Shown here: positions 12,712 to 64,000 of the stretch, one piece after another
How the letters are laid out: each line of letters opens with the position of its first letter
Position numbering within the stretch: the stretch's first letter is position 1
NCBI GenBank assembly: GCA_965248435.1
Contig: OZ252100.1
Location: 1,888,001 to 1,952,000 of the forward strand
Direction of reading: 5' to 3'
Source of the DNA: Candidatus Latescibacterota bacterium
Lineage (GTDB): Bacteria; Latescibacterota; UBA2968; GCA-2709665
DNA: 64,000 nt
Notes under the pieces: model-generated
The model's input: the letters and a program-made list of their open reading frames with translations, nothing else
The model's database searches: none
What the model was told of the DNA's origin: nothing
Translations under genes and position numbers: made by a program

Positions 12712-12738
12712 TCTTCCTTTCCCCTCCCTACAAACAGT

Positions 12739-14998: not shown

Positions 14999-15114
14999 TT
15001 CAATTCAAACCCCGTGAATATAATGAGTGACTCCTGGGAAATCAACAACAAACCCCAAGACTGTGTTAAGGTTAGGGTTACTCCACATCTTGTGTACCGG
15101 CGAAAATGATCCCG

Positions 15115-16968: not shown

Positions 16969-16995
16969 CTTGCCCTCTCATCATTCAGCGCCCTT

Positions 16996-22272: not shown

Positions 22273-22286
22273 GAGCGCCACAAATT

Positions 22287-23954
22287 TTATATCCGCTTGC
22301 GAGCCAACATTAGGTAGTTCCAGGCGTCACTCTCGACCCGGTGAAGGCGATCCAGCAACAGTGCACTCACCTGCACGAGCAGATAACAAACCCGGACGGG
22401 AAGGATAAACGGTCCGCGCTCGAAGTGTTCCAGATAGTAGCAGAAGCGCGATCCCGCGGTCATCCAGTATCCGGCCATGGCGCGCACCTCGATCACGTCA
22501 AGTCCAGCCTTGTTGGCCAGGTATCGCAGGCCGTAACCCGTATAACGATAATAATCGTTCGGTTCTTCGTGAATGCCCCAGATGTGTGGAGCGGTCAGGA
22601 TGAGGAGACCGCCTGGCTTCAAGACTCGTGTGATCTCCGCCATCGCCCGATCGGGCTCGGGCAAATGTTCCAAGACCTGGCTGCAAATGACCGTCTCAAA
22701 GGCCTGCCCTCGAATGGGAAGGGCAAGGGCATCCCCACACGCATCAATCCCTCGCACGGGGGTGCGACTTCGATCCCGGTCCACACCCACGTAGCGGTTG
22801 ACCTTCGAGCCGAAAATCTCCTTGTAGGGCATCCCGCCGCATCCTATGTCCAGCAGCGCCCCAGAGGCCTCGTGCGTCAGTCCCTCCATCGTCCTGCGCA
22901 TCACGCGATGCACGGCCCAATTCTTTGAAAAGATACTCGCATCCACCTGGCTTGCGCTTCGCCTCCTCCCTCCGTCTACCCCCAAGAGATGCGTCCCGGA
23001 AACAACACCCGCAAGGATGGCCGCAAAGAAGATCCCTCCGCTGACCTCGGCCGAACCGAACGCCCCCAGCAGACCCAGCCCCCCAAGGATTCCGCAAGCC
23101 AGATAGATCCTTGTGACCGTTGCCCGGATGGAGCGCCCGGACTTCCTGAGCTGATCGGCGACGTGATCAGGACTTGCGGCAAGGATAGACTTCCCGCGCT
23201 TAAAGCGGGCCAGGGACACGAACCCAGCCTCGAAGCAGGGAATGCCGAGCACGAGGAGTGGGCCGAGCTGCCCCTGGGGCGAGGGGAACACACGTGTCAA
23301 CTCAGCTGCAAGACCCCCAAGGACAAACCCTGAGAAGAGACTCCCGGTATCCCCCATGTAGATCCTGGCCGGCTGATAATTGTAAACCAGAAATCCTGCG
23401 AGCCCTCCGGCCAACGATGCGCCCACCAGGCTCAGCTCCGGCTGGCCTGCAACCAGGGCCAGAACGGCCAGACAAAGCGAGGCAATCACCCCGACGCCGG
23501 CAGCCAGACCGTCCATCATGTCGAGGACGTTGAAGGCATTGCAGATCAACAGGAGCCATACGCCGGTGAGTAACGCGTCGGCCACATCGAACCCAAAGAC
23601 CCTCGCTCGCAATCCGAGGGAGAGTGCGACTGCGATCACTGTAGCCTGCAGGATGAGTTTGCGATAGGGGCTCAGGGCGCGGAGGTCGTCAAGAAAGCCG
23701 ACAAGCGCCATCCCAGCTGCGCCAACGATCAAACCTGTCGGAAGCGAGGAGGGAAAGAACAGAATCGCGGCGGTCAGAATCGCTAGGCCGCCGAAGGAGG
23801 GAATGGATGCGGCTCCAGCAGGGTGAGGCCGAAAGCGTGGGGTCCGAAGGACCAGCGTGCGTAGGATGGGAGTGAGACACAGGGCCACTGCACATGAAGC
23901 AACGAAGACCGGGAAGGGACCCGACCCGACCAGGTCTTCCAGGAGGACCTCCAT
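22287..23954 (-). CDS. WecA/MraY-family undecaprenyl-phosphate sugar-1-phosphate transferase fused to a class I SAM methyltransferase
   Basis: N-terminal GFLDDL, NAFNVLDMMDGLA, NYQPARIYMGDTGS; C-terminal LLDIGCG, VLEHLPEP..A..E..RVLKPGG, HEEPNDYYRYT. Confidence 0.85.
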   Translation of the reverse strand: MEVLLEDLVGSGPFPVFVASCAVALCLTPILRTLVLRTPRFRPHPAGAASIPSFGGLAILTAAILFFPSSLPTGLIVGAAGMALVGFLDDLRALSPYRKLILQATVIAVALSLGLRARVFGFDVADALLTGVWLLLICNAFNVLDMMDGLAAGVGVIASLCLAVLALVAGQPELSLVGASLAGGLAGFLVYNYQPARIYMGDTGSLFSGFVLGGLAAELTRVFPSPQGQLGPLLVLGIPCFEAGFVSLARFKRGKSILAASPDHVADQLRKSGRSIRATVTRIYLACGILGGLGLLGAFGSAEVSGGIFFAAILAGVVSGTHLLGVDGGRRRSASQVDASIFSKNWAVHRVMRRTMEGLTHEASGALLDIGCGGMPYKEIFGSKVNRYVGVDRDRSRTPVRGIDACGDALALPIRGQAFETVICSQVLEHLPEPDRAMAEITRVLKPGGLLILTAPHIWGIHEEPNDYYRYTGYGLRYLANKAGLDVIEVRAMAGYWMTAGSRFCYYLEHFERGPFILPVRVCYLLVQVSALLLDRLHRVESDAWNYLMLARKRI

Positions 23955-25093
23955 CAGATCCCCGAAGTCGTGTCTCTGCCGTTCGGGCTGAACCCCTCTA
24001 CCGCCTCTATCACCTGCCCGATTTCACCTTCGGACATGCTCGGAAAAAGAGGCAGTGTGACCAAGTTTGTCCAAACGGACTCTGTAATCGGCAGAGGACG
24101 CCGGAAAGGCGCGTAGATAGAGTAGAAGTGGTTGGGCTTGTAGTAGACGTTGGAAGCGATCCCACGGTCGGCCAGGTGTACGATCAGTCCGTCTCGATCC
24201 TCCGCCTTTCCGACATAGGCGTGGAAAGAACTCTTGACGTGAGGCCGCTCCACCGGTACCTGAAACCACGGAAGGTCAGAAAAGCCCTTCCCATACTGCA
24301 GGGCGATCTCCCGTCTCTGGGCGTTGCCCGATTCCAGCTTCGCAAGCTGCACGAGCCCGATGGCCGCATTTAGATCATTCATCTGGAATTTATAGCCGGC
24401 CTCCGACACGTCATAGTCCCAGGGGCGGCTGCTTCGCTTCCTTTCATACCGTTCCCAGGTATCCTGACCGATTCCCATCCAGCGCAGCTGTCTGAGTCGT
24501 TCCGCCACAGCGGGGTCGTTCGTCGTAAGCATACCGCCATCGCCTGTCGACAGGTTCTTGATCGCGTGGAAACTGAAGCAGCCGATCGTCCCGATACTCC
24601 CTGCCATCCGTCCTTTGTAACTCGCCCCACACGCGTGTGCTGCGTCCTCGATCACCGGGATGCCGTGTTTGCCGGCGGCCCCCAGGATGGTATCCATCTC
24701 ACACGGGTGACCACCGTAATGCATCACGAGAATCGCGGCGGTCTGTTCGGAAATCAGATCCGCCACCGACTCAGCATCGATGTTTAGTGTCTCCGGGTCG
24801 ATGTCGCAGAACACCGGTTTGGCGCCGTTTTGAAGGATCGCATGATTGGTCGAAACGAACGTCAGCGGGGTCGTAACCACTTCCCTGCCGGCTACGTTCA
24901 GGACCTTCAACGCGAGAAAGAGGGCTGCAGAACAGGAGTTCACGGCGATGGCGTGCTTCGTGCCCACGTATTTAGCGAACCGGCGCTCGAATTCTTCCGC
25001 CTTGGGTCCCGGGCCGACCCATCCTGACAGAAGCACCTCCCGGACGGCCTCGACCTCCTCTTCGCCAAACCACGGCCGGAAAATGGGAATCAT
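23954..25093 (-). CDS. DegT/DnrJ/EryC1/StrS sugar aminotransferase
   Basis: VNSCSAAL, IEDAAHA.G, FSFHAIKNLSTGDGG (PLP lysine), G.KFQMNDLNAAIG. Confidence 0.93.
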   Translation of the reverse strand: MIPIFRPWFGEEEVEAVREVLLSGWVGPGPKAEEFERRFAKYVGTKHAIAVNSCSAALFLALKVLNVAGREVVTTPLTFVSTNHAILQNGAKPVFCDIDPETLNIDAESVADLISEQTAAILVMHYGGHPCEMDTILGAAGKHGIPVIEDAAHACGASYKGRMAGSIGTIGCFSFHAIKNLSTGDGGMLTTNDPAVAERLRQLRWMGIGQDTWERYERKRSSRPWDYDVSEAGYKFQMNDLNAAIGLVQLAKLESGNAQRREIALQYGKGFSDLPWFQVPVERPHVKSSFHAYVGKAEDRDGLIVHLADRGIASNVYYKPNHFYSIYAPFRRPLPITESVWTNLVTLPLFPSMSEGEIGQVIEAVEGFSPNGRDTTSGI

Positions 25094-26733
25094 CTTACAT
25101 TCTCCACAGCGGACGAAATCCGCCGTCCACCCTGGGCCAGCATCCGGCGATATGCACGCAGCCTTGCTCCGGCCTCATCGCGTCGTTCATCAGACAGGAG
25201 ATAGACCACACTCCAAAGGCCCAACCTGAGCACCATCTCCATCGGCCTCAGTCCGGCAAGTAGAGTTGCCGCTCCGTTGCCCAGATGTTTCTCTACGAAA
25301 TAGTCGTAGCTCGCTTCGCTCGCCATCAGCATCTCTTCAAAGACCTGTCTTGAGCTCCATCCACCTGTGTGTACCCCTGCTGCTTCCGGTTGGTAGAACA
25401 CTCCCCACCCGGCCTCCTTCATCCGAAGACAGAGATCCACGTCCTCATAGTACATGAAGAATCGATCATCCATCCCGTTTACGTTCTCGAGTGCGGTGCG
25501 CCTGGAAACGAAACACGCCCCAGTTACCCATCCAGTTTCGTCTAGGCTTTTGGGGCGCCGGCGCGTGAATTTAAACAAAGGAAAAACAGTATGCAACAAG
25601 AATTTACGGCAAATCTCACCAACAAGATTCGGACGCGATCCGCACGACCTTCTGACTCGGCCACGACCGTCGTAGAGCGTGGGTCCGACCGTCCCAGCCG
25701 TCGCTTCCGACGCCAGAAACCTGACCATCGCATAGAGGGCACCCGGTTTCAAGATCACGTCCGGGTTCAGAACGGCAACAAAGGGTCCCGCTGATGCTTC
25801 AAGGCCCCGGTTGACGCCCGCTCCGAAGCCAAGGTTTTCTCCTGCACGAATCACTTGAACCTCTTTCGGAAGGGGATCCAGCCTCTCCACACTCCCGTCC
25901 TCCGACCCGTTGTCCACGACCACGACGTTCATCTCGAGTTTCCCGCGATCGGCCAAAAGGGCCCGAACACATCTCTGAAGCATCTCACCGGAATTCCAGT
26001 TAACCACGATCGCCGTTACATCGAGCCGGTCGGGTCTATGATCGACTCCTGAATTCCGGCCCCAATCCGCTATCCTGGGCTGCTGGCTCTCAACCTGATA
26101 CATACGATCTTCCTCTAACGCGTAAGCCGTCAATTGCCTGCCATACACGCACCCGGTATCCAGACCGATCAAGTAGGGCCGACCATCGTCGTGTCGTTTG
26201 ATCACAAGGCCGCGAGGGGCATCGTGACCGAAGATCAAGACCTTTTCTCCAGGTCGGTAAGCATCATGCCATCTCGGGCCGGTTATGTCTCCAGTGGGGG
26301 GCCAGGTTCGGATCGCCAGGAATTCCTCTCTTTCAGTTCTCTTGATGCCCTTATCGGGATTCACGCCCGCGTGTACCAGATCAAACGCTCTTCCTTCGAT
26401 CCAGAGGGGGAGGTTTTCAAGCCACGCCAGGACCTCCTCAGCCACCTCACGCAGTTGCGACAGGATCGATTCTTCTCCAGATCCAATGCTTTGAGGCGAT
26501 TGGCTCGAAACCGACGCTCTCAACCGTTCTATCAGCCGAGCGTCGTGGTTGCCCAAAACCATCTCAGCGCCCGTTCGCTTCAGAAGCCTCCAGACACCCA
26601 GAGGATCCGGACCTTTCGTAAAGGCATCACCCGTGAGGAGAAGGCGGTCTCTCCCCTCCGAAAATTCACATTTCGCCAGCAGTGCCTCCATTTCGGCGCA
26701 GCACCCGTGTAGATCTCCGATGAAAATGGTCAA
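25090..26733 (-). CDS. ApaH/PrpE-like metallophosphoesterase fused to a GT2 glycosyltransferase
   Basis: N-terminal GDLHGC, GDAFTKG, GNHD, VHAG, FGH, LDTGCVYG; C-terminal IVVNWNS, VVDNGS.DGS, LNPD, GMDDRFFMYYEDVDLC. Confidence 0.85.
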   Translation of the reverse strand: MTIFIGDLHGCCAEMEALLAKCEFSEGRDRLLLTGDAFTKGPDPLGVWRLLKRTGAEMVLGNHDARLIERLRASVSSQSPQSIGSGEESILSQLREVAEEVLAWLENLPLWIEGRAFDLVHAGVNPDKGIKRTEREEFLAIRTWPPTGDITGPRWHDAYRPGEKVLIFGHDAPRGLVIKRHDDGRPYLIGLDTGCVYGRQLTAYALEEDRMYQVESQQPRIADWGRNSGVDHRPDRLDVTAIVVNWNSGEMLQRCVRALLADRGKLEMNVVVVDNGSEDGSVERLDPLPKEVQVIRAGENLGFGAGVNRGLEASAGPFVAVLNPDVILKPGALYAMVRFLASEATAGTVGPTLYDGRGRVRRSCGSRPNLVGEICRKFLLHTVFPLFKFTRRRPKSLDETGWVTGACFVSRRTALENVNGMDDRFFMYYEDVDLCLRMKEAGWGVFYQPEAAGVHTGGWSSRQVFEEMLMASEASYDYFVEKHLGNGAATLLAGLRPMEMVLRLGLWSVVYLLSDERRDEAGARLRAYRRMLAQGGRRISSAVENVR

Positions 26734-50122: not shown

Positions 50123-50314
50123 TTAACCTACAAGATCCACCTCGCCCCCAAGTCCGCTCATATCAGCTGTGCCGGGCGGTGCTTGCAGCTTCATCGACAT
50201 CGCAACGCCCACCATCTTCGTCGCGAGGTCCATCTGGGCCTGGAGGGATTGTCCGAGCACCGCCTCGATCAACCCCGCCGCCATCTGATTCTGTATGGAG
50301 GCCGCATGCATCAT
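50123..50314 (-). CDS. Small YjfB-like (putative motility) protein
   Basis: 63 aa, rich in Ala/Met/Gln, ending LGGEVDLVG like the YjfB G..(I/V)D tail; ATGA overlap with the upstream gene; followed by a terminator. Confidence 0.6.
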   Translation of the reverse strand: MMHAASIQNQMAAGLIEAVLGQSLQAQMDLATKMVGVAMSMKLQAPPGTADMSGLGGEVDLVG

Positions 50315-50925
50315 GAAACGAGTCCTCCCGGGGATTCCCCAGCTTCATCATTCCGTCGTGCACGGATCATGTCGAGCTGAGTCTGGTGGAAATGATCCAG
50401 GAGTTCATTTACCTGAATAAAGGTCCGCTCGATGCTTTCGTCGATCGTCTCGCTTACCTCGGCGATCCCTTCCAGGAATTCCCGAGCCTTCTGAAACCCT
50501 GCATCGATCGCTCCTCGTACAACCGACAGAAGACCGCCGATCTGCTCCTCACCAAGTCCGCCTGCTTGATTTCCTCCAAAGGCCCCGAGGAAACCGGTCG
50601 CAAACGCCACGATACGGCGGGCAGCTGCCTCAGGAGATGTGTCGTTTTTCGAACCCCCTGCCTCGTCCACGCTCGCGTCGATATTTGTGTCAGAAAATGC
50701 CACCTTTAGCTGCTCCATTACCGAGTCTTTCAGAATTCCGTTCACGGCCTCGACGTTCAGCCGCCCTGACAGAGATATTTCCACGCTGTCATTCGCAGCC
50801 TGCACGCGAGTCGGCGACTCCTGTGACTTCGCCTGAGCCTTCTTTTCTTCCGCGCGGACAGCTTCGCGTTGTGCTCGGAACTGGGCAAGTAGCGCCTCGG
50901 TCCTGATGTCGTTTCGGATCGGCAT
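50311..50925 (-). CDS. DUF5610-like protein
   Basis: SPEAAARRIVAFATGF...VRGAIDAGFQKAREFLEG resembles the DUF5610 core; N-terminal DSVEISLSG is FlgM-like. Confidence 0.7.
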   Translation of the reverse strand: MPIRNDIRTEALLAQFRAQREAVRAEEKKAQAKSQESPTRVQAANDSVEISLSGRLNVEAVNGILKDSVMEQLKVAFSDTNIDASVDEAGGSKNDTSPEAAARRIVAFATGFLGAFGGNQAGGLGEEQIGGLLSVVRGAIDAGFQKAREFLEGIAEVSETIDESIERTFIQVNELLDHFHQTQLDMIRARRNDEAGESPGGLVS

Positions 50926-51176: not shown

Positions 51177-54176
51177 TTGACTGAGTCTCCCAATCTTCAA
51201 AACCTGATACTTGATCTCGAGCGGTTCTGGGCCTCCAAGGGCTGTCTTATCTGGCAGCCCTACAGCGAAAAATTGGGGGCCGGCACGATGAACCCCGCCA
51301 CTTTTCTGAGGGTGATTGGACCTGAGCCCTGGTCCGTGGCCTACGTCGAACCCTCCTTCCGTCCAGACGACGGACGATTCGCGGAAAATCCAAACCGGAT
51401 GCAGATGTTTCTCCAATACCAGGTCATTCTGAAGCCTGACCCGGGTAACCCCCTGGAGCTCTACCTGAAAAGCCTGGAGGCCGTGGGTATCGACACCAGC
51501 CGCCACGATATCCGATTCGTTGAGGACAACTGGGAGTCCCCAGTACTTGGGGCGTGGGGTCTGGGATGGGAGGTCTGGCTCGACGGGATGGAAATCACCC
51601 AATTCACCTACTTCCAGCAAGCCGGTGGCATGGCACTCGACCCGGTCGCCGTAGAGATCACCTACGGCCTGGAGCGAATCGCGATGTATCGGCAGGAGGT
51701 CCGCGACGTCTGGGAACTCAGGTGGAACGACCGGGTGACCTACGGAGAGATGCTCAAACAGCAGGAGATAGAATACTGTCACTACGCCTTCAACACAGCC
51801 AGCGTGGAACGCCTCCAGAGTATGTATTCCCTCTTTGCCGAGGAGGCCAGGGAAGCGTTGGGTCGAGGTCAGATCTTGCCCGCCTACGACTATGTGGTGC
51901 GCTGTTCGCACGCCTTTAACCTGCTCGATACCCGAGGCGCAGTCGGCGTGACCGAACGCGCACGCTTCTTCGGAGAGATGCGGGAGCTCGCCCGCCAGGC
52001 GGCGGAAATGTTCGGCGAGCAGCGGAAGGAGAAAGAGTTCCCCCTGCTTTGCAAGAAACCCGACGCCGAAAAGGCCAAATCGCGGAGCGAAGATCTTCCC
52101 GATCTGGATGCCGCCGACCTTCTTCTGGAAATCGGCTCTGAAGAACTCCCGGCCTTTGACGTTCGCAGCGGCACAGACCAGCTTAGAACCCTTTTGGCCC
52201 GGCGCTTAGATGAGGAACGACTGGCATACGAGAAGATACAGATCGGGGGTACGCCGAGAAGGCTCTCGGCACTCGTCACCGGTTTGGCCGGCCGACAGCC
52301 GGACGAGGAACGCTGGGTGAGGGGACCCACCGTCAACGTTGCGTATGATGAATCGGGTGCGCCTACGCGCGCACTGGAAGGCTTCTGCCGTGGTCAGGGC
52401 GTCCGACCGGAAGAGGTCGAGAGACGCAAAGACGAAAAGGGAGTGGAATGCGTCTACGCTCTGCGGAAGGGCGAGGGTCGCAGAACACAAGAGATCCTAT
52501 CCACCCTTCTGCCCGAGCTCATCGGTGACCTCAAGTTTGGCAAGACGATGCGTTGGGATTCGGACGGCGTCTCCTACCCGAGGCCGATTCGATGGCTTGT
52601 GGCGCTTTTTGGAAGCCAGGTCATCCCGATCACCTACGCTCGCGCGGACGCCGGTCGAGCGAGTTTCGGCCTTCGAAGTGAAGGCACACCCGCAATCGAA
52701 TTCAGATCTGCAGATGAATACCAGTCCGTGACCGAGAAACAGGGTATCCTGGTCGACCGTGACCTCCGTCGAAGAAAAATCCAAGCGCAGGTGCGTAGGC
52801 TCGCTGAGGAAGTCGGTGGTGTTGTCGCTGAGGATCCAGACCTCCTCGAGGAGGTCACCGACCTGGTCGAGGCGCCGTTCGGGCTAAGGGGGAGCTTCGA
52901 CGCGTCCCACCTCGAACTCCCTCAAGAAGTTCTGACTACGGTCATGTCCAAACATCAGCGGTACTTTCCGATCCTCGATTCAAAAACGAGTCGGCTCCTG
53001 CCTCACTTCATCACGATCGCCAACGGCCGTTCGATCGACCCGGAAACCGTCCTGCGCGGAAACGAGGGCGTGATTCGGGCACGCTACGCCGACGCGGCGT
53101 TTTTCTACCGTGAGGATAGTCGCAAACCCCTGGAGGACTACCTTCCGAGCCTGGATGCGCTCACCTTCCAGGAAAATCTGGGATCGGTACTCGATAAGAC
53201 ACACCGCGTCGAAAAACTCGTGCCCGCCTTGTCATCCGATCTGGGCCTCGCGGAAAAGGAACAGGAGATGGCCCTGCGCGCTGCCAGGCTCTGCAAGGCC
53301 GATCTGGCCACCAGCATGGTGATCGAACTCACCTCTCTTCAGGGCGTTATGGGACGCTATTACGCCCTGGCCTCGGGCGAGCCGGAACCGGTCGCCGAAG
53401 CCATACAAGGCCACTACCACCCGCGCTTTCCCGGGGATGTGCTTCCCTCCTCACTTCCCGGGTTTGCGCTGTCCGTGGCCGACCGTCTCGACAGCCTCGC
53501 CGGGCTCTTCTCCGTTGGCATAAAGCCCAGGGCGACCGCCGATCCTTACGGACTCAGGCGAGACGCGCTCGGGTTGCTGGCTAACCTGATCGGACACCGC
53601 TGCCGCTTTTCCCTCAAAAAGGGTCTCGAGGCCGCGGCTGATCTGCTTCCGGTAGAGAAGGATCGGGATCGGCTCCAGGATGCCCTCGATTTTATCCTCA
53701 GACGGCTCGCCGTTCAGTTGCGAGACGAGGGGTTCAAGCACGACGTCGTCGAAGCGACGATTGAAGGCGGCTGTGACGATCCGTTCGAACTTCGACAGAT
53801 TGTCGAAGGCCTCACGAAAATGGTCGAGTCCGAGGACTGGCTGGAGACGCTCCACGCCTACTCCCGCTGCAAACGGATCGTGAAAGATCTGCCTGAGCAA
53901 CTCGATCTGGATCCAAGCGCCGACAAGGAAGAGGCAACACAGAACCTGGGGAAGGCTTTTCACTCCGCAAAGGAGCGAATGGATCGCGCAGAGGACCGAA
54001 TCGAGACACTCGGTCAAATCCTTGAAGACCTTCGAAATCCGATCAACACCTTCTTCGACGACGTCCTCGTGATGTCCGAGGACGAAACCCTTCGCAACGC
54101 ACGCCTCGCCCTCGTCCAGCGCATCGCTGCCCTGCCTGACGGTACTGCCGACCTGAGCCTTTTGGAAGGCTTTTAA
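51177..54176 (+). CDS. glyQS: Fused glycyl-tRNA synthetase alpha+beta subunits
   Basis: Alpha: [51 protein letters not shown]. Beta: [33 protein letters not shown]. One continuous 999-aa ORF. Confidence 0.96.
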
Positions 54177-54230: not shown

Positions 54231-56297
54231 TTGGAAACTCAGGACTCAATATTGGACCTCAGGGAGAATCTTTCATCCTGGTGCCTCTATGCAGTCCTCC
54301 TGGGCATACTCACCTTCGCCGCATTCGGCAATCTATCCACCCATCTGTTTCATACCCACGACCAGGAATATCTGCAGGACGCCGCTGTTTCTCAGGGAGA
54401 CTTCTGGTTCTTCGTTTCGCCAGAGAGGATCTATCCAGGGAGGCCTACCTTCAACCTCTATCTCTGGGCCGCTTACAAATTCTTCAAGGAAGACCCCGCC
54501 GGTTATCACCAGCTTCAAGTCTGGCTCCACTTTCTGGCCAGCCTGCTCGTCGCCTTTACTTTCAGAAGGCTAGGGGCAACTTTCGAGCTGAGCCTTATCG
54601 GTGGTCTCCTATTTCTGATGAATGTGGCCCACTTCGACCCCGTGCACTGGATTTCAGCAACCCATTACATCTTGGCACTCATCTTCGGGTTAGTCGCAGT
54701 GCTGCTATACTCCCGGTGCCTGGAAACAAGCCGCTACCGTTGGTCCTTTGCCGCAGCCTCAGCACTGGCAGTGGCCATATTCGCGCATGCCTCCACATCG
54801 GCAGTAACCTTGTTCTTCCTGATTTTGACTTTGTACAAGAAACAGCCGCGATTGAAAGCGATCTATATGCTGCTTCCCCAATTCACTGTCGCAGGGCTAT
54901 GCGGTATGGTCCTCATCCTTGTCTATCCCAAAGAACCCCAGATGAGTGTAGTTCTCAATGTCTCTCAACCTGTGGATGTCATTCGTAACCTGTTCTGGTT
55001 TTCTGGAAGGCTAGTCACAACCGCTCATTGGCTTCCGGAATCTTTGGATCTGGCGGAATACACGGCCTGGGAACTCGCAATCGGATTCATTCTCCTGTCT
55101 CTGTCTATTTTCCTTTCAATGCGTAACCGCGGTTTACTATTGCTTTGGACGGCATGGTTGATCGCATTGACTTTGCCATTCATAAGTATAGAGATAAGGC
55201 CAAATTTAACTGGACCATCCAGATATATCTATCTCTCTTCTCTGGGTTCTTCATTCATTCTTGGCTGGATAGTTCACACGCTTGTATGTTGGGTAGGGAA
55301 GCGATGGATCAACCTCACGCGACCCCTCTTTCTAGGCTGTCTAGGAGTATTGGTAGGGACAAGTTTGCTGGGACTACGAAGAGCCGAAGCCATTTCACTA
55401 GAAATTTCGGCCGGAACCTATATATATAAAAGAAAGCAAATTGAAGTAGGCCTTCAGCTGCTGAAGCGTGCAATCGCTCGAAATCCACGCGTCTTGCCTG
55501 CTGATGCATATTTTACACTCGCAGCGAATAGCTTTTTCATTGGAAAATCCACTGAGCCAATCCTGCAAAAGGCTCTCCGAGAAGATCCTGCATCTCCGGA
55601 ACTCAACATGCTTCTTGGAGTCTCCGCCTTCCTTCACGATGATCCTCAGATTCGCCTAGCCGGAGATAAGAGAGTTGAGGAAGCGCTAAACGCATCTGAT
55701 CAGGACATATTGCTTATTACTAAAACTGGGGTCGCCTATAACAATCTGGGAGGATTCTTTTATGGTACAGGAGATATGGCCACCGCGGCAAAACTGTTTA
55801 TGCGAGCTATTCAGCATGATCCAGGGCATATTTCCTCCACATTGAACCTGGGGAGGGCACTTTACAAAAGTGGCGAAAAGCAGAAGGCGGCTACGATCTT
55901 CAAGCGTCTTTTGGAGCTTCCGCTATCTGACGACTTCATCATACAATGGATGGGAAGGGTAAGCGACATTTTGGCCGAGCAGGACTACGGACAGGAAGCG
56001 ATCGATTCCTACAAGAAAGTTATCTCAGTTAATCCACAGGACACGCTCTCTCACTATAATCTAGCCATTACGTTAGAAAAAGTAGACAGATTGGAGGAGG
56101 CTGTTGAGACTTACGAGACATACTTACAGTTTCAACCCAAGGATTTGAACGCCCTTCTTGGCCTTGCTCGTTCCTACGCTGAAATAGGTCGGAGCGAAAA
56201 AGCGATCGAAGAGTATCGGCGAACTCTGTCTATCAGTCCAGACAACCAGGAAGCCAGATCCAGACTCGAGGCGTTACTGGAGCGCAAACGACAATGA
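54231..56297 (+). CDS. TMTC-like protein (multi-TM GT-C-like domain plus C-terminal TPRs), array copy 1
   Basis: HTHDQEYL, YPGRP, PAGYH.LQ..LH, AHF..VHWIS and SRYIYLSS parallel the TMTC DD / YRP / GYH..N..LH / H.EAV / ERxLYxPS motifs; TPR repeats follow. Confidence 0.75.
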   Translation: METQDSILDLRENLSSWCLYAVLLGILTFAAFGNLSTHLFHTHDQEYLQDAAVSQGDFWFFVSPERIYPGRPTFNLYLWAAYKFFKEDPAGYHQLQVWLHFLASLLVAFTFRRLGATFELSLIGGLLFLMNVAHFDPVHWISATHYILALIFGLVAVLLYSRCLETSRYRWSFAAASALAVAIFAHASTSAVTLFFLILTLYKKQPRLKAIYMLLPQFTVAGLCGMVLILVYPKEPQMSVVLNVSQPVDVIRNLFWFSGRLVTTAHWLPESLDLAEYTAWELAIGFILLSLSIFLSMRNRGLLLLWTAWLIALTLPFISIEIRPNLTGPSRYIYLSSLGSSFILGWIVHTLVCWVGKRWINLTRPLFLGCLGVLVGTSLLGLRRAEAISLEISAGTYIYKRKQIEVGLQLLKRAIARNPRVLPADAYFTLAANSFFIGKSTEPILQKALREDPASPELNMLLGVSAFLHDDPQIRLAGDKRVEEALNASDQDILLITKTGVAYNNLGGFFYGTGDMATAAKLFMRAIQHDPGHISSTLNLGRALYKSGEKQKAATIFKRLLELPLSDDFIIQWMGRVSDILAEQDYGQEAIDSYKKVISVNPQDTLSHYNLAITLEKVDRLEEAVETYETYLQFQPKDLNALLGLARSYAEIGRSEKAIEEYRRTLSISPDNQEARSRLEALLERKRQ
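54275..54610 (+). repeat. Near-identical segment shared by array copies 1 and 3 (second copy about 58442-58777)
   Basis: Long identical runs, e.g. TTCGGCAATCTATCCACCCATCTGTTTCATACCCACGACCAGG..., at a constant offset of 4167 bp. Confidence 0.9.
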
Positions 56298-56304
56298 TAT
56301 GTAG

Positions 56305-58368
56305 GTGGAGAACGTGACGATCCAAGGCTCAATACTCGGCCTCCGAGAGAATATTTCAACTTGGTGTATCTATTCACTCCTGATGGGGCTGCTCACCTTT
56401 GCTGCATTCGGAAATCTCTCTACCCATCTGTTTTCAACGCACGACCAGGAATTTCTGCGGGACGCTGCTGCTTCGCAGGGGCCCTTTTCCTTTATTGTTT
56501 CGCCAGAAAGGAGCTATCCACACCTGTATCTCTGGGCCGCCTACAAACTCTTTAGGCAAGATCCCGCCGGTTACCATCACCTTCAGGTCTGGCTCCACTT
56601 TCTGGCCAGCCTGCTCGTTGCGCTTACTTTCAGGAGACTTGGCGCAACCTTTGAGCTGAGCCTCGTCGGCGGCCTCCTGTTTCTGATGAATGTGGCCCAC
56701 TTCGACGCCGTTCACTGGATATCTGCAACGCATTACATCTTTGCACTCATCTTCGGGTTAGTCGCGGTGCTGCTATACTTCCGGTGCCTGGAAACAAGCC
56801 ACTACCGCTGGTCCTTTGCCGCAGCCTCGGCCCTGGCAGTGGCCATGTTCGCGCATGCCTCCACAGGGGCTGTCACATTATTCTTTCTGATTTTGAGTTT
56901 GCAGAAGAAGCTGCCGCGATTGAAGGCGATCTATATGCTACTTCCCCAATTCGCTGTAGCAGGGCTATGCGGTGTGGTACTAAACCTTGTCTTTGCCAAA
57001 GAACACCAGATGAGTACAGTTCCCATTGTCTCTCAACCTGTGGATGTCATTCGTAACCTGTTCTGGTTCTCTGGAAGGCTGGTCACAACCGCTCATTGGT
57101 TTCCGGAGTTCTTGGCTCTGGCCGAACACACCAACTGGGAACTCGCAATCGGATTCATCTTCCTGGCTCTGTCTATTTTTCTTTCTATACGTAATCGGGG
57201 TTCGTTATTGCTTTGGACGGTCTGGTTGATCTCATTGACGTTGCCATTCATGAAACTAGGGGCAATGCCACATATTACTGGGCCATCCAGATATGTCTAT
57301 CTCTCTTCCCTTGGTTCTTCATTCATTCTCGCATGGACAGTTCATACGTTTGTCGGTTGGGTGGGGAAGCGGCAGCACGACCTCGCGAGACCCCTTTTAC
57401 TAGGCTGTGTAGGAATACTGCTGGTGTTTAGTCTACTGGGGTTACAAAGAACCGAAGCCATCTCACTACATCTTTCGTCTGGAATCTATATATACAAAAA
57501 AAACCAGCCTGAAATAGGCCTGCAACTTTCGAGGCGTGCAATCGCTCGTAATCCACGTGTTTTGCCTGCTGATGCATATTTTAGACTCGCAACGGGTAGC
57601 TTTGCCACCGGAAAATCCATTGAGCGCATCCTCAGAAAGGCTCTCGAAGAAGACCCTGCGTCTCCGGATCTCAACATGCTTCTGGGCGTTTCTGCCTTCC
57701 TGTCTAAGGATCCTCAGGTTCGACACGCGGGTGAAAAAAGGGTCGAGGAGGCACTAAATGCCTCTAGGGATAGCAAGTCCCTCCGTTTGAATACTGCAGT
57801 AGCATTCAACAATCTTGCAGCATTCTATCTTAACGCAAAAGACTATCACCGTGGGATAGAAATCTACAAGAAAGCCCTGAGCTATGACCCTACAAGCCCG
57901 AAGGCGCTCTTCAACCTAGGGAATGCTTTTTACCACATTGGTGAACCACAAAAAGCGATCGAAATCCTTAAGAATCTCCTAAAAGCTCAGCCTCCAGACG
58001 GCATCGCCTGGATGTCAGCGAGAAACCTGAGCACCATTCTAGTTGAGCAGGGATTGGACGAGGAAGCGATTCCTTTCTACACGCGGGCCATCGATGCAAA
58101 TCCTCAAGACAGTCTTTCTCATCATTCCCTCGCAATCGCACTAAAACAAACGGGTAGATTCGAGGAGGCTGTTCAGGCCTACAAAACCTACTTGATGTTT
58201 CAACCCGACAACTGGCAAGCTCGATTGAGTCTAGCTCAGGCCTACGAGAACCTCGGAAGGATTGAGGAGGCTATCGCTGAATATCGAGATGCGCTTACCC
58301 TAGGGCCCGACAATGGTGAAGCCAGAGCAAATTTAGAAACCCTCCTAGAGTTTAAAAACGCCAAGTAG
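56305..58368 (+). CDS. TMTC-like GT-C/TPR protein, array copy 2 (5-aa deletion of GRPTF)
   Basis: Paralog of copy 1; ERSYP-----HLYLW versus ERIYPGRPTFNLYLW. Confidence 0.75.
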   Translation: MENVTIQGSILGLRENISTWCIYSLLMGLLTFAAFGNLSTHLFSTHDQEFLRDAAASQGPFSFIVSPERSYPHLYLWAAYKLFRQDPAGYHHLQVWLHFLASLLVALTFRRLGATFELSLVGGLLFLMNVAHFDAVHWISATHYIFALIFGLVAVLLYFRCLETSHYRWSFAAASALAVAMFAHASTGAVTLFFLILSLQKKLPRLKAIYMLLPQFAVAGLCGVVLNLVFAKEHQMSTVPIVSQPVDVIRNLFWFSGRLVTTAHWFPEFLALAEHTNWELAIGFIFLALSIFLSIRNRGSLLLWTVWLISLTLPFMKLGAMPHITGPSRYVYLSSLGSSFILAWTVHTFVGWVGKRQHDLARPLLLGCVGILLVFSLLGLQRTEAISLHLSSGIYIYKKNQPEIGLQLSRRAIARNPRVLPADAYFRLATGSFATGKSIERILRKALEEDPASPDLNMLLGVSAFLSKDPQVRHAGEKRVEEALNASRDSKSLRLNTAVAFNNLAAFYLNAKDYHRGIEIYKKALSYDPTSPKALFNLGNAFYHIGEPQKAIEILKNLLKAQPPDGIAWMSARNLSTILVEQGLDEEAIPFYTRAIDANPQDSLSHHSLAIALKQTGRFEEAVQAYKTYLMFQPDNWQARLSLAQAYENLGRIEEAIAEYRDALTLGPDNGEARANLETLLEFKNAK

Positions 58369-58397
58369 AAATGAATCTTCCCTAGGTCCAAGAGAAC

Positions 58398-60446
58398 GTG
58401 ATTTCCCAACACGACGTGTTTGCGATCCGCGAGACTGCTTTATCCTGGTGCCTCTATGTGGTCCTCCTGGGCATACTCACCTTCGCCACGTTCGGCAATC
58501 TATCCACCCATCTGTTTCATACCCACGACCAGGAATATCTGCAGGACGCCGCTGTTTCTCAGGGAGACTTCTGGTTCGTCGTTTCGCCAGAGAGGATCTA
58601 TCCAGGGAGGCCTACCTTCAACCTCTATCTCTGGGCCGCTTACAAATTCTTCAAGGAAGACCCCGCCGGTTATCATCACCTTCAAGTCTGGCTCCACTTT
58701 CTGGCCAGCCTGCTCGTCGCCTTTACTTTCAGGAGACTTGGTGCGAATTTCGAGCTGAGCCTTATCGGTGGTCTCCTCTTTCTAATGAACGTGGCGCACT
58801 TCCGCGCGGTTCACTGGATATCTGCGACGAGCTACGTCCTGGCACTCATCCTCGGCCTCGGGACGGTCCTGCTCTTCTTCCGCCGATTGGAGACGGGTCG
58901 CCGTGAGTGGACGCCGGCTGCCGCGCTCGTGTTGGCGGCCGCAATATGCGCCCACCCCTCGGCTGCGATTGTTGCCCTGCTGTGCCTGTTTCTGGCTCTA
59001 CAAAGAAGGCTGGCGATATGGCGTGCTGCCTATGCGTGCCTTCCTCTCTTCGCCGCCACGTTCATTTCCGGAGTTGTGCTGACGGTCGTCTATTCGGGCG
59101 CCCCTCAGGTCGAGGCGACCCTCCGAGCCCCTGAACTCCTGGCTGTCATCCGCAACCTGCTCTGGATGGGAGGAAGGCTCTTCACGAACGCTTTTTGGCT
59201 CCCCGAATTCGTTCTCCTCGAAGAGTACACCTATTGGGAACTGGCAGCAGGTTTTCTTGTTCTATCTGGTTCTCTATTCCTGGCTGTCCGTAATGGCTCC
59301 TCGCTCTTGTTTTGGACAGTCTGGTCAGTTGCGTTTATTCTGCCATTCATCACATCTCAAATCCTCGGCAACGCGTCTGGACCATCTCGATATCTTTATC
59401 TCTCGTCCGTAGGCGCCTGCTTCATTTTCGCCTGGGCAATTCAGACGCTGACAATTCGTGCAAAGAGGAGAAGCAAGAACGCGTCACGGGTGCTTCTCGC
59501 AGGCATTGTGTCAATCATACTGGTTTCCAGTTTCTTTGGACTGGGTAAAACCGAGGCTGTCTCTCTTTATCATTCCGGAAGGACCTATTTTGCCCGAGAA
59601 GACAAGCAGCTTGCGTTAACGCAGTTTGAAAGGGCGATTACACAAGCTCCTGCCGTTTTACCATCTGACGCATACACACGCCTGGCGCACACCGCCTTTA
59701 CTCTGGGAAAATCTGTCGAGCCTATTCTTCGGACTGCCCTGGCAAGAGACCCTGAATCTCGCGAGCTCAATATGCTTCTAGGTGTCTCCGCCTACCTTAG
59801 CGACGACCCTCAGAATCGTGAGGCCGGTGACAAAAGGGTTCAGGAAGCGCTACAGTCCTCACAGGATCACGAGCTTGGCCACGATACGGCGGTGGCATTT
59901 AGTAATCTGGCGGCGTTTTATGTAGAGACGACAGATTATCAAACAGCAATCCATCTATGTAACAGGGCTTTGGATTATCGCTCCCATCATCCTCCGGCTC
60001 TTCTTAATTTGGGGAGTGCGCTATACCAAATTGAGGAAACGGACAAAGCCCTGAAGATCTTCCAAATGCTACTGAGGGTTCAACCTGACAACTGGAAAGC
60101 CACGGTGGGCTTGGCTCGGTCATATCAGAGGCTGGGCAAAGTCGACGAAGCGGTCATCGCATTCCGACGTGTTCTATCTCTGAATCCGAGTTTTCCGGAG
60201 GCCCATTTTGACCTGGGTGCTCACCACTTTAATCGCGGAGAATTTAGCGAAGCAGCCGAAAACTTTCGGGAAACTCTACAGCTCTCGCCTGATTTTTTGC
60301 CTGCCCGTCTGGCCCTGGCTCGGTCTTACGCCAGGATAGGCCAATATCACCTGGCCATTCAGGAGTATCGACACGCGCTGTCTCTCCATCCTGACAACGA
60401 CGAAGCCAGGTCACGTCTCAAGAGCTTGCTGGAGCTCAAACGCTAA
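58398..60446 (+). CDS. TMTC-like GT-C/TPR protein, array copy 3
   Basis: Same motifs and TPR tail; 5' part nearly identical to copy 1 at the DNA level. Confidence 0.75.
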   Translation: MISQHDVFAIRETALSWCLYVVLLGILTFATFGNLSTHLFHTHDQEYLQDAAVSQGDFWFVVSPERIYPGRPTFNLYLWAAYKFFKEDPAGYHHLQVWLHFLASLLVAFTFRRLGANFELSLIGGLLFLMNVAHFRAVHWISATSYVLALILGLGTVLLFFRRLETGRREWTPAAALVLAAAICAHPSAAIVALLCLFLALQRRLAIWRAAYACLPLFAATFISGVVLTVVYSGAPQVEATLRAPELLAVIRNLLWMGGRLFTNAFWLPEFVLLEEYTYWELAAGFLVLSGSLFLAVRNGSSLLFWTVWSVAFILPFITSQILGNASGPSRYLYLSSVGACFIFAWAIQTLTIRAKRRSKNASRVLLAGIVSIILVSSFFGLGKTEAVSLYHSGRTYFAREDKQLALTQFERAITQAPAVLPSDAYTRLAHTAFTLGKSVEPILRTALARDPESRELNMLLGVSAYLSDDPQNREAGDKRVQEALQSSQDHELGHDTAVAFSNLAAFYVETTDYQTAIHLCNRALDYRSHHPPALLNLGSALYQIEETDKALKIFQMLLRVQPDNWKATVGLARSYQRLGKVDEAVIAFRRVLSLNPSFPEAHFDLGAHHFNRGEFSEAAENFRETLQLSPDFLPARLALARSYARIGQYHLAIQEYRHALSLHPDNDEARSRLKSLLELKR

Positions 60447-60523
60447 GTGAATTGCGTTGAGTCTACCCGAAACGATTCTGCGTATTTTGATCCTCAAACC
60501 GTTGTCGTGAGATCCTATGGAAT

Positions 60524-62988
60524 ATGACCAACCAAGGCTCAATACTCGGCCTCCGAGAGAATGTTTCATCCTGGTGCCTCTATGCAGTCCTCATGGGGCT
60601 GCTCACCTATGCCTCTTTCGGAGACCTCTCCACGCACCTGCTGTTCAGCCACGACGCTGAATATCTGCAGGACGCTGCAGTTTCTCAGGATGACTTTTCC
60701 TTCGTCGTCTCACCGGAGAGGATCTATCCGGGCAGGCCCACCTTCAACCTCTACCTTTGGGCCGCTTACAGGCTCTTCGAGAACGTCCCCGCCGGCTACC
60801 ATCTGCTCCAGGCCTGGATCCACGCCATCGCGAGTCTGCTCGCCGCTTTTACGTTCAGGAGACTAGGCGCAAGCCTCGAGATCTGCCTGGCTGCAGGCCT
60901 CCTGTTCTTGATGAACGTGGCCCACTTCAGAGCCATTCACTGGATATCGTGCTCGAGTTACATCCTGGCCCTCATTCTGGGTCTTTGCGCTGTCCTGCTC
61001 TTTTGGGAAGGGCTGGAGAGGGGTCGTCGCGGCTGGATCCTAGGGTCCAGTCTTCTGCTGGCGGCAGCCGTCTTCGCCCACGCCTCGACGGTTGCGATCC
61101 CACTGTTCTGCTTCTTTCTGGCGGTGCGCAGAACGTCGTCGATTCAGAAAGCAATCTACATCGCCCTTCCCCAACTGGCCACCGTGGCGGTGTGCAGCAT
61201 TGTGGTCTTGGCCGCATACCCAAACACGTTTCAGGCCGCAGCCATCGTAAGAGCGCCTCAGCCTTTCGACATGGTCCGCAACCTGATCTGGTTCTGGAGC
61301 AGGCTTGCTTCGACCGCCCATTGGCTCCCCGGCTTCCTGGACCTGGAAGGCGTGACCCATTGGGAACTGGGCGCTGGATTTCTGTTCTTGATCGGTTCTC
61401 TCTATCTGTCAGTGCGCAGAGGCCCAGACCCTTGCCTCTTGACCTGGACGGTCTGGTCGATCCTGTTTTGTCTTCCATTCATAAATTCTGCGAGTCTGAC
61501 GGGAAACATACCCGGGCCATCACGGTATCTCTATTTCGCGTCCCTGGGTACTTCCTTCATTCTGGCCTGGATCCTTCATGCAATCGTGTTTCGATTGCTG
61601 AATCTTTCTCGAGCGGGAGAACGTGCTGCTTTCCTAGGCGTCCTGAGTCTGATCGTCGTTCTCAGTCATTTCGGTCTCGCAAGGGCAGAGGCAATTTCCC
61701 TTTACCACGCAGGCCGAAGATATATTGCCCGGGGAGACCATGCCCCAGGCGTCAACCAGCTGAAGGCGGCGATTGCTCGAAGCACGAATATACTACCCAT
61801 CGACGTCTATAGTCGGCTTGCAATGAGTTCATTCGTCCTGGGCAAATCTTCTGAATCGATACTTCGCAGTGCTTTATTGAAGCATCCCGATTTACACGAA
61901 CTCAACATGCTCCTGGGAATGTCCGAGTTGTTGCACAGCGACCCTCAAGTTCGAGAGGCCGGTGAAAGGCAAGTTCGAGACGCGGTAGAAAGCTCTGTCG
62001 ATAAGGAATTGCTTCGCTGGTACGCCGCTATCGCCTACAACAATCTTGCGACATTCTACTCCGGATCAGGCCATAAACGGACTGCGATAGAACTCTACTT
62101 CAACGCCATTAGGTCTTATCCAGACTATCCGACTGCAATTTGTAACCTGGGAAGGGTTCTCTACGACAGCGGCGACAGAAAAAGGGCCGCAGACGTCGTC
62201 CATTCTCTATTGCAGCTGCAGTTGCCTGATGGATTCATAATGCGACGTGGCTCGGAGACTTCATGTCCTCGGAAGGTCGAAAAGAAGATGCAGCAGCATT
62301 CTACAAACTGTCCGCCAGCGTGAGCCCCGAAGATGGCTCGGCACATCATACCCTGGCGATCACGCTGGCCGAACTGGAAAGATTCGAAGAGGCGATTGAA
62401 GCCTACCATTCATGTCTGAGGTATCAACCCGACAACCTTAAAGCCCGTCTTGGCCTGGCGGCGTCCTACGAGAGGCTCAACAGGATTGGCGAGTTGATTG
62501 CGACCTACCGACACGCTGCATCGCTGAAACAGGACAGTTCATCCTTTCATAATCTGGCTATCACGTTAAAGCAGTCTGGCAGATTGAAGGAGGCTATCCA
62601 AGCCTACAACGCATACTTAAAGTTCCAACCCGACAACTGGAGGGCCCAACTCAGCCTGGCTCAGGCCCATGAAAGTCTGGATGAGATCGATGAAGCTATT
62701 TTGGCATATCAAAAGGGTTTGTCACTGAATCCCCATTTTGTGGAGGCTCACTTCAATCTAGGGGTGCACTACTTCAAACGCGGGGAATTCGACGAAGCTG
62801 CCGAAAGCTTTAGCCAGGCTGTCCGGCTCTCCCCCGACTTCTTGAATGCTCGCATTGGTCTCGCGCAGTCTTTCGAAAAAATGGGTCAACGTGAAGAAGC
62901 AGTTCGAGAGTATCGAAACGCACTCTTGCTCAATCCGAACGATCGTAAACTGATGGCCAGTCTTCAGGCCCTTTTGGCACACGAATAG
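60524..62988 (+). pseudogene. TMTC-like GT-C/TPR protein, array copy 4, frameshifted near 62245
   Basis: ORF 60524-62323 matches the paralogs up to LQLPDGFIMR; homology continues in another frame (WLGDFMSSEGRKEDAAAFYK..., ORF 62263-62988, all TPR). Confidence 0.75.
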
Positions 62989-62993
62989 CGTGG

Positions 62994-64000
62994 ATGATAC
63001 AAAATAGTTCTGGCAAAGCTCCTATACTCGCGATACGCGAGAATATTTTGACCTGGTTCCTGTATGCACTGCTCATGGCGGGACTGACTTTTGTAGCCTT
63101 CGGGAACCTCTCCACACATTTGTTGCACGACAATGATCCGGAGTACCTGGAAGATGCCGCCGTTTCCCAGCGAGACTTTTCCTTTGTTACTTCCCCAGGA
63201 TCTATCCAGGCAGGCCGACCTTTAATCTTTATCTTTGGGTCGCATACAATCTGTTCGGGGACGATCCTGCCGGGTATCATAACCTTCAAGTCTGTCTACA
63301 CCTGGCCGTCAGTCTGCTCCTCGCGTTTACATTCAGGAGGCTCGGATCGAACTTTGAGTTGAGTCTCATTGGGGGCCTCCTCTTCCTGTTGAATGTGGCC
63401 CATTTTCGGGCCGTTCACTGGATCTCCTGTACGAGTTACCTGCTTGCGCTTTTTCTGGGGCTAACGGCGCTTCTTCTCTATTCCCACGGTCTGAGGACGA
63501 GAAACTCCCGCTGGTCCTACGCGGCGGCCGCAGTCCTGGCGGTCGCCATCTTTGCTCACGCCTCAACGGTGGCGATCACGTTGCCCTTGCTGATTTTGAC
63601 TCTGACGGCAAAGCTTCCAAAACTTAAAGTTATCCACATGCTGATTCCCCAATTCGCCATCGCGGGAATCTGTGGAATCCTACTCATCTCTGTCTATCCA
63701 AAAGCGCCCCAGCTCGTAATGGCTTCCAGGGCCTCTCAGCCTGTGGATCTCGTGCTCAATCTGTTCTGGTTCTGGGGAAGACTGATTACGACCGCTCACT
63801 GGCTTCCAGAGTTCCTGGATCTGGCAGAAACCACCGTTTGGGAACGTACGGCGGGATTCTTTTTCTTCGGTCTATCCGCTTTTCTTTCGGTGAGACGCGG
63901 GTTGTCCGTACTTTGGACGGTCTGGCTGATCGCATTTTCGCTTCCGTTTGTTGGCTCAGATTTGTGGCCGAATGTCCCTGGACCGTCTCGATACCTCTAT
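62994..64000 (+). pseudogene. TMTC-like GT-C/TPR protein, array copy 5, frameshifted near 63197 and truncated by the window end
   Basis: CCA GG ATC TAT CCA versus CCA GAG AGG ATC TAT CCA in copies 1 and 3 (4-nt loss). The shifted frame reads IYPGRPTFNLYLWVAY...GPSRYLY and stays open to 64000. Confidence 0.75.

Follow-up and report, generated by a model that had tools for sequence, protein, structure and literature searches.

The DNA analysed here is a window of 64,000 nucleotides (nt) from a Candidatus Latescibacterota genome, C1:1888001-1952000, where the prefix C1 denotes contig positions; the genome spans 5.67 Mb in two contigs and is 97.5% complete with 7.0% contamination. At its right-hand end the window carries a tandem array of five paralogous genes, each encoding a membrane domain followed by a tail of tetratricopeptide repeats (TPR). 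The copies lie head to tail on the same strand (Table 1), with spacers of 7, 29, 77 and 5 nt when measured from mechanically called starts of open reading frames (ORFs), and the ORF listing bears out the sequence-only reading of this DNA on both points. That reading spoke of at least five copies continuing past the end of the window. Copy 5 does run past it, ending 852 nt beyond, and no sixth copy comes next. A whole-genome search with the membrane domain of copy 1 returned only the five copies and two distant paralogues (E 4.8e-8 and 2.4e-5); considered with the non-array genes that follow copy 5, this means that the array, now mapped in full, has exactly five members and stops at copy 5. Four copies had been described as complete, which does not hold for copy 4, since it is frameshifted and is not one ORF. 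In public gene calls copies 1 and 2 have 681 and 684 amino acids (aa), so that their true starts may sit a few codons downstream of those used here.

The C-terminal 250-400 residues of all copies are TPR repeats with strong Pfam TPR matches (aa 445-686 in copy 1), and weak BcsC, PgaA and PilW types appear among the NCBIfam TPR matches. The membrane domain, roughly the first 430 residues, has no Pfam or NCBIfam match save a local one between copy 2 and Agl23 (E 2e-5, far below the cut-off). Pfam searched at E<=10 gave no match on the membrane domains of four copies, PMT and PMT_2 (PF02366, PF13231) match none of the array copies, and a membrane-only alignment profile retrieved 0 chains at E<=10 from the PDB sequences. 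An AlphaFold2 model of aa 1-400, built on a 76-row alignment, reaches a pLDDT of 95.2 and a pTM of 0.94 (pLDDT also 95.2 at full length). According to DSSP the model has 11 membrane helices, in keeping with the 10-11 transmembrane (TM) segments counted from the sequence, and then a C-terminal TPR superhelix; the full-length model contains no soluble domain besides the TPR. With the membrane-only model, all 18 Foldseek matches at E<=0.001 are enzymes of the glycosyltransferase C (GT-C) fold (STT3, AglB, Pmt4, ArnT, PglB), and with the full-length model only TPR proteins were returned (OGT and SPY superhelices, APC/C). VIA-align 2, run against 48,161 chains, placed GT-C folds in all of its top 20 entries, with Z from 22.2 to 11.3. 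AglB leads (Z 22.2, 322 residues aligned, root-mean-square deviation 4.0), followed by STT3B (20.7), ArnT and Pmt2 (20.6 each), PglB (19.4), ALG12 (19.1), Pmt4 (18.6) and AftA (17.5); EmbA holds rank 20 (11.3), and rank 21 is an unrelated fold at Z 6.9. PIG-U chains are also found among the structural matches, at Z 12.1-13.9. The GT-C fold, on which the sequence-only reading stood or fell, is thus what both the model and the structure searches find.

In the model, TM1 (residues 14-37) is followed by a long first loop with two short helices and then by TM2-TM11, and the last helix, ending at about residue 383, runs into the TPR. Sidedness was read from this helix order, taking the short Lys/Arg turns at about 114-117, 203-206, 299-301 and 359-362 as cytoplasmic. 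The N-terminus would accordingly be cytoplasmic and the TPR arm periplasmic, and D44, R71, H93, H100, H134, H186, R260, W267, E281, S330, R331 and Y334 would all lie in periplasmic loops or helix ends. The predicted topology agrees with the descriptions given for the TMTC proteins (PMC7801869) and for the bacterial enzyme TfpW (bioRxiv 10.1101/2020.04.19.049825).

Profile comparison connects the membrane domain to a known family. A membrane-only alignment of the clade to which the array belongs, compared by hhalign with 26 PF08409-type proteins, gives a probability of 99.5% and E 4.7e-23 over 339 columns, and the clade profile matches the two PF08409 genes of the genome (E 4e-15 and 3e-12) at profile positions 12-202. 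Against PF08409, whose cut-off is 27 bits, the two distant paralogues score 33.7 and 25.4 bits by hmmscan; the genome scan gives them 38.1 and 29.1 bits. The array itself is unmatched in the PF08409 genome scan at E<=10, which picked up two other genes, a weak site of no relation to them, and nothing else. The nearest ESM Atlas clusters are named GT family 39 / PMT_2 (score 0.95). Judged by these profiles, the array proteins share descent with PF08409 (TMTC_DUF1736) proteins. The label 'TMTC-like' chosen earlier is therefore apt as regards profile kinship and the combination of 11 helices with a TPR tail; it does not extend to the Pfam TMTC model, which the proteins fail, or to several TMTC motifs, which are absent.

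The first loop reads H-D-x-E in copies 1-4 and N-D-P-E in copy 5, and in the hhalign columns H43 and D44 are paired with the invariant D59 and D60 of PF08409-type proteins. The replacement of the acidic DD by HD.E or ND.E, remarked on from the sequence, is real both in the alignment and in the profile comparison. Of 72 clade members from outside the window, 47 carry D and 25 carry H at position 43; at position 44, 67 have D, 4 have E and 1 has G. The close relatives P0002 and P0156 carry DD. The counts at position 43 thus make HD a recurrent variant within the clade, whose ancestral first-loop state looks like DD from the aligned members. D44, which the profile alignment places at the second residue of DD, is present in 71 of the 76 family rows and in all five copies. 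Conservation over the 76 rows is similarly high for R71 (74), P72 (68), H93 (73), H100 (74), H134 (75), H186 (73), R260 (73), E281 (70), R331 (73) and Y334 (75), and the last eight of these are each found in 66-71 of the 72 outside members. The five copies keep all these conserved residues except R71-P72 in copy 2, which may be catalytically impaired, to judge from its loss of GRPTF. A compensating acid for His43 was sought and the candidate dropped: Asp145 occurs in 15 of 29 His-type rows but is absent from the array copies, and its association with His43 is probably a phylogenetic signal.

The clade is not confined to this genome. HMMER, run against 1.84 billion representatives, found 2030 proteins at E<=0.001 and 156 representative clusters at E<=1e-30. 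None of the 29 proteins from a word-indexed search lists PF08409, and the only name among them is 'tetratricopeptide repeat protein', from a Candidatus Latescibacterota metagenome-assembled genome (MAG). The PF08409-type family is very large: of 8000 candidates scored for it, 946 proteins passed E<=0.001, and PF08409 is present in nearly all of the 120 that were listed. Species-representative genomes, scanned with a narrower alignment, gave eight loci, three in Latescibacterota, one each in Eisenbacteria and Handelsmanbacteria, and three in other MAGs. Full-length members (E<1e-40) are present in 6 of 40 relatives as singles, pairs or a cluster of three, and second adjacent copies also occur at loci L014 and L015 and at three of the four loci with long flanks.

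Table 1. Features of the array, its surroundings and related loci (window positions unless prefixed C1)
Feature	Position	Strand	Remarks
Copy 1	54231..56297	+	688 aa, intact; membrane domain aa 1-~400, TPR tail; all family-conserved residues present
H43-D44-Q45-E46 codons of copy 1	54357..54368	+	Predicted first periplasmic loop; counterpart of GT-C 'DD'
Copy 2	56305..58368	+	687 aa, ORF intact; without GRPTF, including R71-P72
Copy 3	58398..60446	+	682 aa, intact; conserved residues kept
Copy 4	60524..62988	+	~821 aa if read through; ORFs 60524-62323 and 62263-62988
Copy 5	62994..64000, onward to window-equivalent 64852	+	~619 aa if read through; ORFs 62994-63362 and 63359 onward
Tract shared by copies 1 and 3	54264..54688 (copy 1), matching 58431-58855 (copy 3)	+	425 nt, 91.5% identical, gap-free
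Alternative-frame ORFs	54281-54988, 58448-58906, 60757-61812	+	235, 152 and 351 aa; overlap 5' parts of copies 1, 3 and 4
Methyltransferase and GT-C+TPR gene	C1:1952857-1955996		242-aa class-I S-adenosylmethionine (SAM) methyltransferase, 4 nt after copy 5, and 803-aa PMT/PMT_2 protein
glyQS	51177-54176	+	Glycyl-tRNA synthetase alpha and beta fused, 999 aa (tRNA-synt_2e, tRNA_synt_2f, DALR_1)
DUF5610 gene	50311-50925	-	204 aa; only non-housekeeping gene in 3 kb upstream of glyQS
Peptidase_C25 gene	5725-11508		1927 aa, exported; CARDB, C-terminal FlgD_ig
Surface-polysaccharide cluster	11728-26733		Adjoins C25 gene; region 5725-26733 on -/+ strands
PF08409 genes	C1:~181,000-183,000 and C1:~1,639,000-1,641,100
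Further GT-C/TPR-related loci	C1:2690525-2694516 and C1:4287961-4289680

Over the first ~450 alignment columns the copies are 59-98% identical to one another in nucleotide sequence, and beyond these mostly 45-65%, in agreement with the earlier remark that the first loop is conserved and later parts diverge; copies 1 and 2 hold 73-90% over ~1500 nt. The TPR tails vary as well, as had been noted, and the lengths of the copies differ (Table 1). Between copies 1 and 3, one 150-column window is at 98% identity, against ~50-65% further 3'. The tract shared by these two copies is the only inter-copy blastn match at >=88% identity, with a synonymous divergence (dS, Nei-Gojobori) of 0.21 against 1.9 in the remaining membrane domain, and probably results from gene conversion. 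The HD segment falls within this conversion-prone 5' region. Synonymous sites between copies are mostly saturated by the same measure (dS >1); besides the tract, the exception is the membrane domain of copies 1 and 2, with dS 0.34 against 1.38 in their TPR tails. The ratio of nonsynonymous to synonymous divergence (dN/dS) is 0.08-0.37 wherever dS can be estimated. Saturation and low dN/dS together indicate that the copies are old and have long been under purifying selection, with exchange of segments.

The frame changes of copies 4 and 5 were located from the ORFs and a three-frame reading, one near 62238 inside the TPR tail of copy 4 and one near 63195, at codon ~68 of copy 5. Two contigs, X1 (depth 40.7) and X3 (depth 13.8), match the window letter for letter over 60533-64000 and show both breaks; they represent two runs of one sample, which may be the source of the assembly itself. 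Contig X5 (10,761 nt) comes from another study, has a depth of only 4.1 and, over 2810 nt, departs from the window at 62 letters and 15 gap positions. Insertions of 7 letters behind 62238 and of 4 behind 63195 each bring both halves of the copy concerned into the same frame, and the 4-letter insertion restores the conserved loop-1 sequence of the family. The public protein P0015, encoded in an assembly of 49,931 nt, matches copy 4 at 98.3% identity over aa 130-821, with no interruption at the break. The breaks in copies 4 and 5 are genuine differences and not homopolymer noise.

The related sequences are broken at other places. X5 itself is without the 4 letters at 60871-60874, a gap that fits the late start of P0015 at residue 130. 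After 63433 it continues as sequence identical to C1:1955078, inside the 803-aa gene, a join that reflects either the loss of ~3.6 kb in a related strain or an assembly error at low depth. P0003, from the same 49,931-nt contig as P0015, is 90% identical to copy 3 for 314 residues and then goes out of frame, and P0153, from another contig, is an intact counterpart of copy 3 (82% identical over 680 aa). P0156 (776 aa) shows at most 55% identity to each of the five copies. From these comparisons it follows that the repertoire differs between close relatives and that copies break independently. The birth and death of copies proposed from the sequence is consistent with two frameshifted copies out of five, with relatives broken elsewhere, with the conversion-like tract and with the varying repertoire; it has to be qualified by the age of the copies and the purifying selection on them. 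Strain-to-strain breakage and the conversion tract suggest that the array is dispensable copy by copy, which fits an accessory surface modification.

The long alternative-frame ORFs over the 5' parts of three copies are probably by-products of composition, and those of copies 1 and 3 are near-identical because the underlying DNA is. The guanine-plus-cytosine (GC) content of the array is 51.9%, against 56.6% for the genome (4.7 points lower), and in 7% of genome windows of that size the GC content is no higher. The AT-richness noticed earlier is therefore real but ordinary, within the normal spread of the genome, and the array is no outlier. In the array and the block behind it, promoter and terminator scans gave about as many hits as expected from shuffled sequence, and found no terminator between genes. 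Among 23 listed runs there was no RNA run to show expression of the array.

The array is preceded by glyQS, whose fused form is kept in four related genomes at 63-78% identity. Behind copy 5, the stop of the methyltransferase gene overlaps by 1 nt the start of the 803-aa GT-C+TPR gene, whose product matches Pfam PMT and PMT_2 (E 1.3e-8 and 1.6e-7) and has a TPR tail. In genome G002 of the same family, glyQS is followed by a methyltransferase, a 245-aa glycosyltransferase of family 2 (GT2) and a PMT-like GT-C+TPR gene. In G008, also of this family, it is followed by a 975-aa PMT_2+TPR protein, a methyltransferase, a 256-aa GT2 and a PMT-like GT-C+TPR protein 49% identical to the 803-aa protein. 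G001, of the same genus, has no cassette after glyQS; it also lacks clade members and anything matching the 803-aa protein. The comparison around glyQS thus places the five-copy array in a variable slot of a glyQS-adjacent glycosylation block. The small GT2 of the G002 and G008 cassettes is missing at this locus, and their methyltransferases are only 25% identical to the array-adjacent one. A conserved array-specific operon was considered and dropped: tblastn at E<=1e-5 in 14 relatives' loci found neither the methyltransferase nor the 803-aa protein, and four loci with ~10 kb flanks have no neighbouring family in common.

The genome has 29 PF00535 matches, none within the locus. Two of these genes, at C1:1724537-1725565 and C1:3415376-3416308, can be aligned over their full length with PgfS (E 2.7e-85) or ArnC (E 1e-54), with scores under the equivalog cut-offs. 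The search for polyprenol-phosphate-sugar synthases that the sequence-only reading had suggested thus yields two full-length ArnC/PgfS-like GT2 proteins, candidate makers of polyprenyl-phosphate sugars, elsewhere in the genome. Of the two further GT-C/TPR-related loci, one holds two tandem genes whose identity to the membrane domain of the 975-aa PMT_2+TPR protein of G008 is 46-47%, and the other contains a GT2 and methyltransferase pair resembling the relatives' glyQS-adjacent cassette. Counting the array, the two PF08409 genes, the 803-aa gene and these loci, the genome has at least ten genes of GT-C+TPR type.

At the opposite end of the window, the gene for the C25 protein and the surface-polysaccharide cluster lie 28-48 kb from the array, with the genes for SOD, PBP2, RodA, DnaE, AroA and others between. 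The cluster encodes an epimerase, two glycosyltransferases of family 4 (GT4), an FGE-sulfatase-domain protein, an Asn-synthase-like protein, a Wzx-type flippase and a Wzy_C protein; it also encodes a WecA-like GT4-methyltransferase fusion, DegT and a metallophosphoesterase-GT2 fusion. The CARDB-containing C25 protein had been proposed as a target of the array enzymes and was rejected as unsupported; ~43 kb of housekeeping genes separate its gene from the array.

We favour, with a probability of about 0.6, the reading that these three intact and two frameshifted tandem genes represent a divergent GT-C clade of the TMTC/PMT/ArnT group and encode glycosyltransferases whose TPR arms choose the acceptor. 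At the periplasmic face, such an enzyme would draw on a sugar donor linked to polyprenyl phosphate; this dependence is suggested by the fold and by the alignment of R331 and Y334, the likely counterparts of the phosphate-binding Arg and Tyr in the ERxxY motif described for TMTCs, and D44 would take its place in the GT-C acidic loop, as the profile alignment has it. The TPR would hold the acceptor to which the sugar is passed, most probably a protein of the periplasm or the cell surface, and the paralogues would differ in acceptor. The array would belong to an operon-like block with the SAM methyltransferase and the PMT-like GT-C+TPR gene in the variable slot downstream of glyQS, and would be turning over through conversion and decay. 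We also count the published architecture of TfpW as an analogue in support of a glycosyltransferase.

Several observations weigh against this reading. The first Asp of DD, said by Eisenhaber et al. 2021 (PMC7801869) to be common to all GT-C enzymes compared there, is replaced by His in copies 1-4 and by Asn in copy 5, and the TMTC residues which the motif table of that paper assigns to metal or sugar binding (M3, M4, M5) are replaced or gapped. Two of the five copies are broken and a third, copy 2, is without R71-P72. None of the genes beside the array encodes a donor synthase, a pilin or another candidate acceptor, the four relatives' loci with ~10 kb flanks have no neighbour in common, and the papers brought up by the literature searches gave no activity, donor or acceptor for the clade or for bacterial PF08409 proteins. 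Nothing was found, either, in support of three earlier proposals, namely a lipid-linked donor shared by the copies, protein targets in general, and evasion of phage, host or predator.

A possible, though not a probable, alternative is that the copies are active GT-C transferases on non-protein acceptors, that is, an envelope glycan or lipid such as lipopolysaccharide core, lipid A (as for ArnT), capsule or a cell-wall polymer, with the TPR docking to an envelope machine. ArnT is indeed among the best structural matches, TPR are also found in polysaccharide-export proteins (the BcsC, PgaA and PilW types seen weakly in NCBIfam), the next genes encode a methyltransferase and another GT-C enzyme, and there is no adjacent candidate protein substrate. 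But the characterised enzymes of the same architecture, TMTC1-4 and TfpW, modify proteins according to their published descriptions; the polysaccharide cluster of the window is at least 28 kb away behind housekeeping genes, and the relatives' loci lie in unrelated neighbourhoods. It is also conceivable, and in our view unlikely, that the clade consists of mechanistically distinct GT-C enzymes with another catalysis and maybe another donor, the tandem copies forming a fast-turning, TPR-specified repertoire of protein glycosyltransferases by which strains would come to differ at the cell surface, through gene conversion and through frameshifts arising separately in each. A distinct catalysis is suggested because the acidic metal ligands of TMTC and ArnT are gone, a ring of invariant histidines is present (H93, H100, H134, H186, often H266), and in a third of the members, this array included, His stands where a universal first-loop Asp was supposed.

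The two remaining explanations deny the array a present enzymatic role. That the GT-C fold was kept and sugar transfer lost, leaving a membrane scaffold or chaperone for lipid-linked or protein clients like PIG-U in the glycosylphosphatidylinositol (GPI) transamidase, would account for the loss of the first Asp of DD and of both metal ligands predicted for TMTCs in the published motif scheme, and PIG-U does figure among the matches. We consider it improbable, given that the polar residues of the periplasmic face, including the Arg/Tyr pair and D44, are near-invariant in the clade, that 47 of the 72 outside members have the full DD, and that the best structural matches are enzymes with Z far above PIG-U. 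Least probable of all is a mainly decaying remnant of a horizontally acquired block with no current role in this strain. The two frameshifts, the contig of a related strain broken differently in the same two copies, the same-genus genome without a member or cassette at the syntenic site, and a GC content 4.7 points under the genome mean could all be read in this way, but three copies have unbroken frames of ~685 codons each and keep all conserved residues, dN/dS is well under 1, and the GC content, at the 7th percentile, is within the normal spread of the genome.

If the glycosyltransferase reading holds, the array has a bearing on a very large enzyme set, the bacterial GT-C+TPR proteins, for which the literature searches brought up the pilin of TfpW as the only bacterial substrate. 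As the clade differs from the TMTC motifs at presumed metal and sugar positions, it offers a test case for which GT-C residues are indispensable.

Among enzymes of solved structure, AglB/STT3/PglB, ArnT and Pmt1-Pmt2/Pmt4 resemble the array proteins in the fold of the membrane domain (Z 19.4-22.2 over 322-349 aligned residues). They differ in sequence, with 8-13% identity and no match at the sequence level in the PDB, and in having a MIR or an STT3/PglB C-terminal domain where the array proteins have a TPR array. Animal TMTC1-4, which form CAZy family GT105, are closer in architecture: they share the GT-C fold, with ArnT among the closest structures, and the combination of 11 helices with TPR. 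They also share the Arg-Pro of the first loop and the Arg and Tyr of ERxxY before TM10, as far as the published motifs go. The motifs were read from the hhalign columns against the motif table of PMC7801869. By that table, M1 (DD) corresponds to H43-D44 in copies 1-4 and N-D in copy 5; M2 (..YRP) is kept as R71-P72 and deleted in copy 2; M3 (RxD/E) reads x-x-Y146 and M4 (K-E) H186-x; the Asp of the DUF1736 loop (M5) falls within an 8-column gap; and M7 (ERxxY) is S330-R331-x-x-Y334. Unlike TMTC1-4, the array proteins have no PF08409 match and no DUF1736 loop, their TM7-TM8 loop being shorter and rebuilt, and they would act in the bacterial periplasm according to the modelled topology, a location that makes a dolichol-linked donor unlikely.

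Bacterial PF08409-type GT-C+TPR proteins have the same architecture and length, occur in the same candidate phyla and are detectably homologous, at ~17% identity in aligned profile columns; the array clade has not retained their invariant DD, HPxHTE, GRAE, KE and SADYS-type motifs. TfpW of P. aeruginosa, a pilin D-arabinofuranosyl transferase of 646 aa with a GT-C fold, has 11 predicted membrane helices, a periplasmic C-terminal TPR, ArnT as best template and an acidic first-loop motif (DDX) needed for activity, according to the text of the preprint (bioRxiv 10.1101/2020.04.19.049825). It is the only bacterial GT-C+TPR enzyme with a shown substrate that the literature searches brought up. The likeness of TfpW to the array proteins is one of architecture, drawn from this published description and not from sequence, and tfpW is reported there to lie directly downstream of pilA, whereas the array has no flanking pilin gene. 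The architecture and fold of the array proteins are thus already known from TMTC1-4 and TfpW; what is new is a branch unseen by current Pfam and NCBIfam models, with a rebuilt TM7-TM8 loop, histidine-rich invariants and turnover at the level of strains.

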